Shown here: positions 6,777-19,284 of the stretch, one piece after another | How the letters are laid out: every line of letters starts with the position of its first letter | Numbering within the stretch: the stretch's first letter is position 1 | From: Acidimicrobiia bacterium | Lineage (GTDB): Bacteria; Actinomycetota; Acidimicrobiia; Spongiisociales; ZC4RG35 | Direction: 5' to 3' | Assembly (NCBI GenBank): GCA_040902845.1 | Contig: JBBDWM010000024.1 | Coordinates: 25,854-89,853, forward strand | DNA: 64,000 nucleotides | The notes under the pieces: model-generated | The model's database searches: none | What the model saw: only the letters and a program-made list of their open reading frames with translations | What the model was told of the DNA's origin: nothing | Program-made: the position numbers and the translations under genes

Positions 6777-8764
6777 GCGATCGGACGATGAAGGCAACCG
6801 AACGGATCCAGGGTCAGCCCGGCCCGGGTCGAGGCCCCTTCGGCGGTGGAATGATCGGTCAGAAATCCTCAGCCTTCGGCCCTTCAGCCAGACGTTTGAT
6901 GGGCCGCCTGCGACCTCAGCAGGCGAAAGTCATCGCAGTATTCGCTGCCGGAACGATGAGCGTGGCCCTTTCCGCGATTGGTCCCAAAGTCCTGGGCACA
7001 GCCACAGACTTGATATTCGCCGGGGCGATTGGCAGGAGTCTCCCGACCGGGATCACGAAAGCAGAAGCCATCGCCGGAGCCCAGGCTTCGGGCCAGAATC
7101 AGTTCGCCGCTTTGCTCTCTGGGATGAAGGTCGTGCCCGGACAGGGCATTGACTTCGCGGCTCTCGGCCAGGTGCTCATGGTCGTGCTTGCCCTCTATGT
7201 CGGATCGGCACTGCTCGGGTACCTTCAGGGCTTCCTCCTGAACGACGTGGTGCAGCGAACTGTGTTCCGTTTGCGCTCAGACGTCGAAGACAAGTTGAAC
7301 CGGCTCCCGCTCCGCTACTTCGATCGGCAGCCCCGAGGGGAACTACTGAGTCGGGTGACGAATGACATCGACAATGTCTCACAGAGCCTTCAACAGACGA
7401 TGAGCCAGCTCCTGACTTCGCTGCTGACGATCGTGTTCGTAATGGGGATGATGTTCTACATCTCCCCCACCCTGGCGCTCATCGCCCTCGTGACTATCCC
7501 GATCACAATGGTCATCGCAGGGCTGGTCATGCGAAAGTCCCAACGGCAGTTCGTCTCTCAGTGGAGACGCACCGGCAGCCTGAACGCCCAGATCGAAGAG
7601 TCGTTCACCGGGCATTCCTTGGTCAAGATCTTCGGCCGCCAGAAAGAGGTGCAGGCCACCTTCGAGGTTGAGAACGATGGGCTATACGAGGCCAGCTTCC
7701 GGGCCCAGTTTCTCTCGGGGCTCATCATGCCGATCATGATGTTCATTGGGAACCTGAACTACGTGATCATCGCCGTGGTTGGAGGGCTTCGAGTCGCCAG
7801 CGGGACCATGAGCCTCGGCGACGTGCAGGCGTTCGTTCAGTACTCACGCCAATTCACCCAGCCAGTCACCCAGGTCGCCTCAATGGTCAACCTTCTGCAA
7901 TCAGGTGTGGCATCGGCCGAGCGGGTCTTCGAGCTGCTCGACGCCGAAGAGGAAGTTCCGGATGACCACCATCCCAGCATGGTGGGAGAAAGACACGGCC
8001 GTGTCGTTTTCGAAGATGTGTCCTTCAAGTACGAAGAGGACCGCCCCCTTATCGAGGATCTGAGCTTGAACATCGAGCCGGGCCATACGGTGGCCATCGT
8101 CGGCCCCAACGGCGCAGGCAAGACGACGTTGGTGAATCTGATTATGCGGTTCTACGAGCTCGATGAGGGTCGCATCTCGATCGACGGTATCGACATCGCC
8201 CGGCTGCGCCGGTCCGACCTTCGCTCCGGGATCGGCATGGTGCTCCAGGACACCTGGTTGTTCCATGGGACGATTCGGGAGAACATCGCCTACGGGCGGC
8301 CCAACGCGACCGAGGACGAGATCATGGAGGCGGCCCAGGCCACGTTCGTCGATCGCTTCGTCCACAGTCTCCCGGACGGTTACGACACCGTCATCGACGA
8401 CGAAGGCGCAAGCGTCAGCACCGGGGAGAAGCAGTTGATCACCATCGCACGTGCCTTCCTCGCCGACCCCGCGTTGTTGATCCTCGACGAGGCCACCAGT
8501 TCGGTCGATACCCGGACTGAGCTCTTGGTCCAGCACGCGATGGCGGCACTCCGGACCGACCGCACCAGCTTCGTGATTGCCCACCGGCTTTCGACCATCA
8601 GGGACGCCGACCTGATCCTGGTTATGGAACAGGGCCGGATCGTGGAGCAGGGAAACCATTCCGAGCTCATCGCCCTCGACGGGTCCTACGCCACTCTCTA
8701 CAACTCGCAGTTCATGGGATCGGACCAGCCACCGGAGCCCGAGCCGGCGATGAAGGTGGCGTAG
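6773..8764 (+). CDS. ABC transporter permease/ATP-binding protein (partner half-transporter, heterodimeric exporter)
   Basis: It overlaps the first half-transporter by 4 nt. The NBD has GPNGAGKTT, signature [14 protein letters not shown] and [12 protein letters not shown], plus an extended N-terminal extracytoplasmic loop. Confidence 0.9.
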
Positions 8765-8860
8765 GGCTTAGCCCCCTCGATCGCACTCGCTGCGCTCGTT
8801 GGCGATCGGTCCCCCGCTCCGCAGGGGGACAAGCCTTGGGTGCGAAGCCGACCGGCAATC
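8765..8860 (+). terminator. Conserved 3' element with hairpin GTCCCCCGCTCCGCAGGGGGAC (8809-8830); homologous copy at 58712-58800
   Basis: It has a 7-bp GC stem with an 8-nt loop about 45 nt after the ABC stop. The flanks (TAGG.C..GCCCCCTCG ... GAAGCC.CCGACCGGC) align to the region after the SDR gene. Confidence 0.45.
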
Positions 8861-11835: not shown

Positions 11836-11890
11836 CTCGTAATTGGGACCCACAGGGCCGCATATGACCCCTGTGGGTCCCAATTACGAG
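11836..11890. repeat. 55-bp palindromic element, copy A: CTCGTAATTGGGACCCACAGGG-11 nt-CCCTGTGGGTCCCAATTACGAG (REP/MITE-like)
   Basis: It has a 22-bp perfect inverted repeat with an 11-nt loop between convergent genes. It generates the MGPTGPHMTPVGPNY-type spurious ORF starts seen in the track on both strands. Confidence 0.75.
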
Positions 11891-16962: not shown

Positions 16963-16971
16963 GGAAGGGGA

Positions 16972-17105
16972 GGGTACTTGGTACTCAGTACTGGGTACTT
17001 AGACCAGACCGAGTCGCAATACGCAATACGCAATACGCAAAACCAAAACGCAATACGCAAAACGCAAAACGGTGAACGGTCAACGGCGAACGGTCAACGG
17101 TCTCG
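16972..17105. repeat. Composite 7-bp-period tandem repeat tract: (NGGTACT)x4, (CGCAATA)x3, CGCAAAA variants, (ACGGYSA)x5, between divergent lgt and a membrane protein gene
   Basis: It reads GGGTACTTGGTACTCAGTACTGGGTACT ... CGCAATACGCAATACGCAATACGCAAAACCAAAACGCAATACGCAAAACGCAAAACGGTGAACGGTCAACGGCGAACGGTCAACGGTC. The strict heptad periodicity shares motifs with loci 2671-2780 and 43272-43331. Confidence 0.75.
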
Positions 17106-17143
17106 GCCAAAGTCGGCCGGCATTGGAGTTAAAGTCCCGCAAC

Positions 17144-18324: not shown

Positions 18325-19284
18325 CTAGGTCGTATTCACCGACCCGGAGAAATCACCGAGGGCCAGGGCATCGCGCACCGACTCGGCGATCTCCCTCGCC
18401 ACCAGTTCCTGGGCTTCCACGGTTGACGCCCCGAGATGGGGTGTCAACACCACGTTGGGCAGATCGAGAAGTGGGCTGTCCGGTGAGAGCGGCTCGGACT
18501 CGAAGACATCGAGAGCCGCGCCGGCGAGGTGACCGTCGATCAACGCCTGGGCAAGTGCCTCCTCATCGATCACACCCCCCCTCGAGACGTTGACCAAGAA
18601 CGCGCCCGGCTTCATATGGGATATGGCGTCCTCGTCGATCAGGTGCAGGGTCTCATCGGTGAGGGGGACGTGGAGAGAGATGATGTCCCCGTGAGTCAGG
18701 ACCTCGTCGAGTCCGGTCAGAGCAAGGCCAAGGTCGTCTGCGCGTTCCGTGGTCAGATAGGGGTCGTAGACAAGGACTCTCATCCCAAAGGCCCGGCACC
18801 GAATGGCAACCTCGCTCCCGATCCGACCGGCCCCGACCAGGCCCAGGGTGCGGTCCTTGAGCTGCACACCCCTCAGACGCGAGCGCTCCCATTTCCCGGC
18901 GCGCATAGATCGGTCCGCCTCCGCCACCCGTCGGACAACCGAGAGGATCAATGCCATCGTGAGCTCGGCCGCAGCCACCGTATTGCCGGCTGGGGAGTTG
19001 AGGACTGCGATTCCCCGTTCGGTCGCCGCCGAAAGATCGATATTGTCCACCCCGACCCCGGCCCTTCCAACGACTTTGAGCCGCGGGCCGTACGCCAACA
19101 TCTCCCGGGTCACCTTGGTGGCGCTTCTGACCACCAGCCCGTCGGCATCGGCCAGGGCCGCCTGAAAGGCATCGGTCGCCGAGTCGTCGATCCGGATGAC
19201 CTGAAATCGATCGTCCTCCAGCAACGGAGCCAGACCCGACTCGGAGACGTGGTCGGTGACCACGACTCTGAAATGGTCACTCAT
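18325..19284 (-). CDS. D-isomer-specific 2-hydroxyacid dehydrogenase (short SerA-like phosphoglycerate dehydrogenase)
   Basis: It has the NAD-binding motif GLVGAGRIGSEVA and the catalytic R/E/H triad region. It is coupled by 4-nt overlap to the upstream aminotransferase. Confidence 0.8.
   Translation of the reverse strand: MSDHFRVVVTDHVSESGLAPLLEDDRFQVIRIDDSATDAFQAALADADGLVVRSATKVTREMLAYGPRLKVVGRAGVGVDNIDLSAATERGIAVLNSPAGNTVAAAELTMALILSVVRRVAEADRSMRAGKWERSRLRGVQLKDRTLGLVGAGRIGSEVAIRCRAFGMRVLVYDPYLTTERADDLGLALTGLDEVLTHGDIISLHVPLTDETLHLIDEDAISHMKPGAFLVNVSRGGVIDEEALAQALIDGHLAGAALDVFESEPLSPDSPLLDLPNVVLTPHLGASTVEAQELVAREIAESVRDALALGDFSGSVNTT

Follow-up and report, generated by a model that had tools for sequence, protein, structure and literature searches.

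Two related units in convergent gaps of the window

The 64,000-nt stretch analysed here (contig JBBDWM010000024.1 of an Acidimicrobiia bacterium with a GC-rich genome, 63%; hereafter the window) has four convergent intergenic gaps of at least 60 nt, and two of them hold a GC-rich palindromic unit of about 60 nt that recurs in many other genomes. Copy 1 (8771–8834, + strand) lies in a 94-nt gap between a + strand ATP-binding cassette (ABC) exporter gene ending at 8764 and a − strand 5′-3′ exonuclease gene ending at 8859; copy 2 (58716–58775, + strand) lies in a 184-nt gap between a + strand short-chain dehydrogenase/reductase (SDR) gene ending at 58711 and a − strand MaoC dehydratase gene ending at 58896 (gene products by Pfam). 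A preliminary description of the window had reported near-identical hairpins at these two loci, in regions that each start right after a stop codon. Both points were borne out: TAG stop codons occupy 8762–8764 and 58709–58711, each followed by a GCCCCC(C)TCG motif, and the hairpin pattern, with up to three mismatches allowed, matched exactly twice in the whole window, against 0.01 matches expected from dinucleotide shuffles.

Its outline of the element—about 100 nt, with a common 'TAGG' start and a common GAAGC..CCGACCGGC tail—had to be redrawn. TAGG is merely the stop codon plus one base, and the sequence 5′ of the C-run differs among the family copies in an alignment of their flanks. Beyond the coordinates given above the two regions show no convincing alignment. 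The tail falls outside the unit; at copy 2 a second, unrelated palindromic repeat (el2, see below) begins with it, and at copy 1 there is a short resemblance only.

That the two hairpins resemble each other by chance might be argued from the high GC content, which makes short G/C palindromes common, and from the unexceptional folding energies of the whole regions. We give this next to no credence: none of 100 shuffled windows yielded two matches, copy 1 was found at E = 4.6e-11 by a covariance model from which it had been left out, and the same multi-part layout is found in over 100 other copies. The window holds no third copy (the next best covariance-model score was 14 bits), and both copies are singlets. 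Further motif candidates at 18577/18663, 11887/11950, 23684, 38055 and 54700 proved to be coding sequence or unrelated. A generic repeat finder run on the window returned families at chance level only and did not report the two-copy pair, and a tRNA/tmRNA scan found nothing near either unit.

Anatomy of the unit

A flank alignment revealed a layout common to about 65 copies, which we call the Acidimicrobiia form: CCCCCC-TCG, a variable hairpin, a conserved hairpin (hairpin 2) and AAC. Direct reading of copy 1 gives a C-tract (8772–8776) followed by TCG, then a linker hairpin in which CGATCGC (8778–8784) pairs with GCGATCG (8802–8808) around a 17-nt loop, and then hairpin 2 (8809–8830, + strand; GTCCCCCGCTCCGCAGGGGGAC), composed of GTCCCCC, GCTCCGCA and GGGGGAC and followed by AAG. 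Copy 2 has its C-tract at 58716–58721, again followed by TCG, a linker hairpin at 58723–58742 (CGCCCGACC-GAAG-GGTCGGG), a copy-specific GGGGCCG extension after it (58743–58748) and hairpin 2 at 58749–58771 (+ strand; GTCCCCCCGCTTCGCAGGGGGAC). The upstream hairpin, which had been described for copy 2 alone, is present in both.

Hairpin 2 has the consensus GTCCCCC(C)-GCTYCGCA-GGGGGAC, with an 8-nt loop that contains a conserved GC..GC mini-stem. The linker hairpin always starts and ends with CG, and otherwise varies in sequence and in length (about 17–34 nt); examples are CGCCCGACC-NNNN-GGTCGGRCG, CGACGC-17 nt-GCGTCG, CGGTCGGCG-AAA-CGCCGACCG and CGATCACC-TGT-GGTGATCG. A Chloroflexota form carries GGCCCCCCTATG directly before hairpin 2, with a linker of about 6 nt (TATGGT) and no linker hairpin, and other palindromes follow it. 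At four Chloroflexota loci (L008, L050, L063 and L094; retrieved loci are denoted by L and a number) the loop of hairpin 2 is flipped relative to the flanking modules, as if inverted between the stem arms.

In an alignment of 27 sequences, the linker hairpin keeps 90% of cells paired, with double changes at six pairs; the observed covariation was reached by none of 500 shuffles. A covariance model (R1) built from this alignment, with copy 1 left out, scores copy 1 with 49.9 bits and copy 2 with 62.1. Across 455 kb of Acidimicrobiia-type loci it identified 127 units, among them units of a reverse-orientation type, termed X to distinguish it from the window type, Y. Type X reads GTTGTCCCCCC-TTTCSAA-GGGGGGAC-CG..hairpin..CG-AGGGGGGTT and has the same architecture. 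In the R1 alignment, compensatory changes occur at nine of nine linker pairs, and the GTCCCCC/GGGGGAC stem is unaltered in about 113–117 of 119 distinct rows. This pattern suggests that the C, C and G tracts are constrained in sequence and the linker only in shape, as far as can be read from loci chosen by their hairpin 2 and from an alignment fitted to a model.

Each unit has three conserved homopolymer tracts, C5-6 ... C5-6 - loop - G5-6, of which the last two make hairpin 2 and the first is tethered to it by the linker, giving a pyrimidine-pyrimidine-purine order (Y-Y-R) on one strand and R-R-Y on the other.

Spread, orientation and arrays

Scanning one genome per species with the pattern GTCCCCC-N0-1-GC-NN-CGCAGGGGGAC returned at least 114 loci, with many copies per genome, in metagenome-assembled genomes (MAGs) of Acidimicrobiia and Chloroflexota. 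The retrieved loci contained at least 20 exact hairpin matches for the Chloroflexota chromosome OZ244848.1, at least 12 for each of the Acidimicrobiia MAGs DATKEA01 and DASWKK01, and at least 10, in nine loci, for CAVZVJ01. Viral contigs gave no hairpin match, and the hairpin strings matched only irrelevant primers or miRNAs in the open-access literature. The Acidimicrobiia-type architecture was found in MAGs labelled Acidimicrobiia, Acidimicrobiaceae, Actinomycetota and, in some cases, Acidobacteriota. Full units of this type also occur in a MAG labelled Hyphomonadaceae (L022, 595–617; L032, 2281–2303). The Acidobacteriota-labelled MAGs with full units include L001, L108 and others; over 5 kb, L108 matches the window at 83% identity. 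Such occurrences in contigs binned to other phyla suggest mis-binning, mislabelling or horizontal transfer.

Genes were called with a purpose-written codon-usage caller, which assigned 92% of the window to coding sequence and reproduced the Pfam-supported genes. About 90% of the unit copies fall outside the genes called this way, and both window copies are intergenic. We then recorded how the flanking genes are oriented relative to each element, E (> and < denote genes that share its strand or lie on the other one, respectively). Among copies of the Acidimicrobiia form, 13 were in >E>, 12 in <E<, 17 in convergent (>E<) and 5 in divergent (<E>) settings; for the Chloroflexota form the counts were 7, 10, 8 and 5, respectively. 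Unit orientation is unbiased with respect to the flanking genes, while gene 3′ ends are favoured, as is the case for repetitive extragenic palindromes (REPs): 42 of the 47 classified copies of the Acidimicrobiia form adjoin a gene 3′ end, and divergent gaps are depleted (5/47). This is not the behaviour of a strand-specific RNA signal. The preference for gene 3′ ends that the preliminary description had raised is seen, without a strand bias to go with it; its '3′ element', both window gaps being convergent, is located 3′ of genes on both strands.

In repeat-rich MAGs the units form tandem runs of two to five as well as mosaics. X-Y and Y-X pairs make up long palindromes whose outer ends are inverted (GTTGTCCCCCC / GGGGGGACAAC or CCCCCCTCG / CGAGGGGGG), and doublets and arrays were seen at L018, L038, L069, L084, L103, L104 and L111.

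These distributions bear on the two functions that had been proposed for the window hairpins. As U-less ('I-shaped') intrinsic terminators specific to the lineage, or as stabilisers of mRNA 3′ ends, the units would owe their sequence conservation to that role. The window copies begin 5–8 nt past a stop codon, in convergent gaps that would suit a bidirectional stop; the bias of the Acidimicrobiia form towards gene 3′ ends and its scarcity in divergent gaps point the same way, and copy 2 has been kept, with hairpin 2 unaltered, in four species. REP elements, moreover, are known to have been co-opted in this manner (PMC3337134). Nevertheless, we consider a dedicated terminator unlikely. The preliminary description had already remarked on the missing U-tract, and correctly so: no T/U tract follows hairpin 2 at either copy on either strand, and a scan for terminators and promoters returned 0 terminator-like and no promoter-like sites at either locus. 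Mycobacterial RNA polymerase has been reported to require a U-tract for intrinsic termination in vitro, which also counts against this explanation. The units show no preference with respect to the orientation of the upstream gene (13 versus 12 copies and 7 versus 10 copies in the two forms); the conserved loop, 5′ C-run and 3′ AAC would be superfluous for termination; tandem runs of two to five units and units in divergent promoter gaps (for example at L097) do not fit; and the identical hairpin occurs in two phyla within different flanks.

The second proposal, a 3′-untranslated-region-derived small RNA (sRNA) or, more broadly, a structured non-coding RNA or cis-regulatory element transcribed from the + strand, could draw on the two adjacent hairpins, the first of which covaries strongly, and on the conserved single-stranded C-run and AAC. 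We regard it as very improbable, given the random orientation with respect to genes, the many copies per genome with their arrays and inverted pairs, the lack of a promoter-like site at either locus, and the antisense overlap of units with DUF559 gene 3′ ends (see below). Nor did Rfam yield a family: the window gave no match at the gathering score, and eight loci searched at E ≤ 1 gave nothing on the unit. The sole Rfam match in those eight loci was a glmS ribozyme (L001, 2322–2475, − strand, 89.8 bits), which is unrelated to the repeat.

Three further classes were set aside: CRISPR repeats on account of the irregular spacing, integron attC sites because there is no cassette array and the window copies lie 50 kb apart, and a riboswitch or pseudoknot with the C-run pairing to the G-run because the unit is randomly oriented and multi-copy.

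Orthologous sites and neighbouring repeats

The window aligns with L086, L108 and L031 at 83–87% nucleotide identity over several kb, and with L097 at 77–78%. In the former three, copy 2 occupies the same site after the SDR stop codon with an identical hairpin 2, whereas the spacer beside it is unalignable among these orthologs. An identical hairpin 2 at orthologous sites would be explained by selection or by homogenisation among copies.

Directly downstream of copy 2 lies el2 (58786–58895; GGCGGAAGCTCCGGCCGACCGGCGTCTGTTTGCCCGAGGC ... GGTTGGCCGAGGGCAAAGTCGGCCGGCAT, also CCGGCCGACCGGCGTCTGTTTGCCCGAGGC ... GGCCGAGGGCAAAGTCGGCCGGCA), which adjoins the stop codon of the − strand MaoC gene. Both arms of el2 recur at the non-orthologous loci L103 (1760–1865) and L074 (1856–1960). 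The ortholog L031 is without el2 and has an X-type unit in its place. The terminal 16-mer of el2 is also found at 17108–17123 of the window, inside a divergent gap (16963–17122) that contains tandem heptamers (CGCAATA and variants) and GGTSAACGG repeats. Where the window has these heptamer repeats, the orthologous gap of L097 (5149–5331) contains a Y unit—a presence/absence polymorphism. Gaps of this kind are thus mosaics in which several repeat families turn over.

Other stretches of the window resemble these repeats or fill similar gaps. Next to the stop codon of the − strand exonuclease gene, GAAGCCGACCGGCA at 8845–8858 resembles the outer end of el2, AAGTCGGCCGGCA, at about 18 of 25 positions as compared by eye; with low confidence, it could be what is left of an el2 copy. 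A CGCAATACGCA stretch in a convergent gap at 43275–43299 is similar to the repeats of 16963–17122. A convergent intergenic gap of 64 nt is filled by two arms of about 23 bp that make a perfect inverted repeat (CTCGTAATTGGGACCCACAGGGG / CCCCTGTGGGTCCCAATTACGAG; 11837–11890), perhaps a different sort of bidirectional, terminator-like hairpin.

DUF559 nuclease genes are bracketed by units

At three loci, units of the window family directly abut a small gene for a DUF559 protein (PF04480, a Vsr-like PD-(D/E)XK nuclease): L084 (5357–5716), L038 (2381–2737) and L026 (4563–4883). Among L001–L114, only 12 of about 900 called genes have the family hairpin within 150 nt on both sides. Of the three DUF559 genes in this set, those of L038 and L084 are among the 12, the other unit-flanked genes being housekeeping genes; the third DUF559 gene (L026) is also bracketed on both sides, though the 12-gene screen did not list it. 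The window itself contains no DUF559 gene.

We retrieved close homologues (58–91% identity) of the Acidimicrobiia DUF559 proteins together with their contigs. This yielded about seven independent Acidimicrobiia contexts—a syntenic sigma70-DUF559-aminotransferase locus found in several species, L198, L199, L200, L204, L205/206 and L084/L038—and every one of them has at least one family unit within about 50 nt of the gene. The usual arrangement is Y-gene-X, in which a reverse unit overlaps the DUF559 stop codon and a forward unit often lies upstream. The most divergent of these DUF559 proteins, at L204, is accompanied by a variant unit with a CTCCCCCC/GGGGGGAG stem.

The association extends to other bacteria. 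A metagenome scan with a DUF559 protein alignment returned 80 loci, mostly 45–55% identical, and at 21 of 65 loci a sequence of 22 nt or more in the 5′ flank of the gene recurred without mismatch, inverted, in the 3′ flank (for example CTCCTTCCCCCTCTGGGGGAAGGCTGGGATGGGGGC). Hairpins whose stem pairs perfectly over at least 7 bp and includes C4 or G4 were found on both sides of the gene in 47, on one side in 9 and on neither side in 12 of the 68 metagenomic loci with enough flank, as compared with 2 of 162 control windows placed 1–2.2 kb away. The upstream and downstream loops are complementary, which makes the hairpins an inverted pair. Across the DUF559 loci (L084, L038, L026 and L115–L207), the flanking units are of the window family in Acidimicrobiia and of the TMECO/BoxC type in other phyla; the literature identifies the shared flank sequences of the metagenomic loci as TMECO, also named BoxC, a G/C-rich intrastrand triplex motif of Proteobacteria (Holder et al. 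2015, NAR, PMC4666352).

A gene-less inverted doublet of the proteobacterial hairpin-plus-G-tract type lies at L195, 1490–1640, on the Methylobacterium bullatum replicon NZ_LR743510.1. BLAST placed its unit at 11 positions in this 2.8-Mb replicon, and a search of a plasmid collection returned one unannotated Methylobacterium replicon only.

DUF559 proteins have been found enriched among the predicted targets of 'programmed inversion' flanked by inverted repeats (PMC9881135), and the Vsr/DUF559 clade includes a homing endonuclease (PMC3424549); in the open-access literature we found no statement of a partnership between DUF559 and a repeat. The association itself seems solid. As to its meaning, the nuclease might mobilise or maintain the units, the gene might home into pairs of units, or the units might regulate the gene. 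A specific proposal, which we put forward tentatively and consider rather less probable than its negation, is that the window unit and BoxC/TMECO are non-autonomous partners of a stand-alone DUF559 nuclease whose gene sits inside an inverted pair of cognate units. Under such a partnership, solo units and gene-less doublets would spread or persist through the DUF559 nuclease.

The E. coli DUF559 gene ycjD and TMECO

In E. coli K-12 the only DUF559 gene is ycjD, within L208 (NC_000913.3, 1349800–1352000). It ends in CCCTCTCCCTGA, and this end lies inside a TM-like CCCTCTCCC sequence; the next 170 nt downstream contain a partial duplicate of the ycjD 3′ end and then TMECO #9. The 5,426 complete E. 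coli genomes have between 1 and 27 TMECO matches each, and 3,378 of them carry ycjD. We compared the two in a sample of 60 genomes, using a composite query. All 37 genomes with ycjD have at least eight other TMECO-type matches. The 23 genomes without it divide into 14 with 1–6 matches, CFT073 and ST131 included, and nine with 9–11 matches, O157:H7 included; put differently, all 14 sampled genomes with six or fewer matches are without ycjD. This association is one-way only, and it is phylogenetically confounded. According to an independent study, ycjD takes the place that the eefRABCD operon has in other phylogroups, the replacement having happened at least twice (PMC12817139). Like the bracketed loci and the gene-less doublet, these E. 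coli observations are compatible with the proposed partnership.

Nature and significance of the repeat

Taken together, the two window sequences are probably single copies of a GC-rich DNA palindrome, non-coding and dispersed, of the REP/bacterial interspersed mosaic element (BIME)/BoxC kind. Directly observed are repetition, intergenic location, the absence of strand bias, mosaic arrays and polymorphism between orthologous sites, along with all but invariant tracts and a linker that covaries so as to preserve its structure. Of the readings offered in the preliminary description, that of a repeated, REP-type element is the one to survive: the unit is multi-copy in many genomes, mostly intergenic, arranged solo, in tandem or inverted, and polymorphic at orthologous sites. 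A U-less terminator family finds no support as its defining function, with unbiased orientation, a loop and flanks conserved across phyla and units in divergent gaps such as that of L097; nor does an sRNA, given the balanced orientation (13 versus 12; 7 versus 10) and the multi-copy arrays.

We envisage that the units accumulate at insertion-tolerant places, mainly past gene 3′ ends, where their multiplication would give rise to single units, tandem arrays and inverted doublets; related genomes would gain and lose them while their tracts are kept uniform. A trans-acting protein would spread or maintain them, the best candidate being the DUF559 Vsr-like nuclease. The window units might act incidentally as bidirectional 3′ hairpins between convergent genes, a secondary, co-opted role that their position makes possible.

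Several points weigh against an interpretation as a dispersed repeat. Four species keep copy 2 at the same orthologous site with a perfectly conserved hairpin 2, which selection for a role in the host, for instance in termination or in stabilising mRNA, would explain as well as concerted evolution does. Neither a target-site duplication nor a clean pair of empty and filled sites has been defined, and the mobilising enzyme is a candidate only. The whole regions are not predicted to fold with significantly lower energy than shuffles (z = −0.95 and −1.57). The loci were collected by exact match to hairpin 2, which makes its invariance in part a matter of construction; the covariance-model alignment is biased towards the model itself; and the copy numbers, drawn from retrieved loci rather than whole genomes, are lower bounds. 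Finally, tracts of 5–6 nt and linkers of 20–34 nt lie outside the published criteria for triplex motifs, and the triplex is putative.

On its own, the window feature adds a further family of intergenic palindromic repeats and is of moderate interest. For annotation, it argues that such sites should not be called terminators, sRNAs or small open reading frames, and the unit may serve as a marker of genome plasticity in the poorly studied soil Acidimicrobiia and Chloroflexota. It also extends a three-tract, BoxC-like (triplex-motif) architecture beyond Proteobacteria, with constrained tracts and a linker free in sequence. The association with DUF559 is consistent and apparently unreported, and BoxC/TMECO repeats have so far had no known origin or mobilising activity. 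Were DUF559 indeed their partner, this would be directly testable in E. coli K-12 via ycjD, and of considerably greater interest.

Comparison with known repeat systems

Intrinsic terminators, including the U-less actinobacterial kind that has been proposed, share with the window unit a GC-rich stem-loop just past stop codons; the unit differs in having no U-tract and no orientation bias, and in its conserved loop and flanks and its multi-unit arrays. A relationship to miniature inverted-repeat transposable elements, which are under 200 bp, derive from an autonomous element and have terminal inverted repeats plus a target-site duplication, is conceivable: X-Y and Y-X pairs have inverted outer ends, and a gene-containing version, Y-DUF559-X, exists.

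The BIMEs of enterobacteria, like the window family, combine several types of palindromic unit in alternating orientation within one intergenic gap (BIMEs are summarised in PMC4666352). One such mosaic, of Y and X units plus el2, is that at 58716–58895 in the window, and others lie at L038, L069 and L084. The unit sequences differ, and the known protein partners—integration host factor, gyrase and Pol I—are those of E. coli BIMEs.

REPs and their doublet form, REPINs, are likewise short, imperfect extragenic palindromes, highly repeated as singlets, inverted doublets and clusters, possibly co-opted at gene 3′ ends and flanking one associated gene in inverted orientation. A conserved 5′ GTAG-type tetranucleotide beside the palindrome is a feature of REPs. 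The window family is without this head, the 'GTAG' in the window being stop-codon context. The flanked gene also differs: in REPINs it encodes a REP-associated tyrosine transposase (RAYT) of the HUH type (Bertels & Rainey 2011; PMC3116915, PMC3337134), and in the window family a PD-(D/E)XK DUF559 Vsr-like nuclease. A tblastn search of about 0.9 Mb of loci plus the window with two approximate RAYT/Y1 transposase queries—a weak test—found no RAYT or IS200-like gene, and a RAYT-driven REP was dropped as an explanation. A partnership of the unit with DUF559 would parallel that of RAYT and REPIN, with another enzyme fold and with hairpin or triplex DNA as the substrate.

In layout, the closest relative of the window unit is TMECO/BoxC, whose consensus is CCCTCNCCC N3-6 GGGNGAGGG N3 GGGNGAGGG and of which E. 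coli K-12 has 23 copies and 262 proteobacterial genomes together have 3610 (PMC4666352); Salmonella lacks it. TMECO is always intergenic and shows no strand bias, includes five inverted tandem pairs and occupies unusually variable loci, in whose neighbourhood a mobility gene was not found (PMC4666352). The window family matches it in most of these respects: (nearly) always intergenic and without strand bias, it reaches tens of copies per genome, forms inverted tandem pairs and varies at given loci between close relatives, with no transposase found nearby. In both, three consecutive tracts follow one another, two of them making a hairpin and the third tethered by a linker, in the order C-C-G on one strand and C-G-G on the other. 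The differences lie in the sequence (GTCCCCCC/GGGGGGAC in the window family versus CCCTCNCCC/GGGNGAGGG in TMECO, whose consensus the unit does not match), in the tracts (5–6 nt versus 9 nt), in the hairpin loop (8 nt with its GC..GC mini-stem in the window family), in the linker (a variable hairpin of 17–34 nt in Acidimicrobiia versus 3 nt) and in the hosts (Actinomycetota and Chloroflexota versus Proteobacteria). The ITxF criteria ask for three tracts for C-C-G or C-G-G triads, stems of at least 6 and loops of 1–6 nt (PMC4666352); the Y-Y-R tract order is present in the window unit, with tracts of 5–6 nt, an 8-nt loop and a linker of 6 nt in Chloroflexota or a hairpin of 20–34 nt in Acidimicrobiia, a geometry outside the published loop limits. 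The window unit thus appears to work like a TM/BoxC repeat without belonging to TMECO by sequence, and the two have one further trait in common: each brackets DUF559 genes in its own group of hosts.

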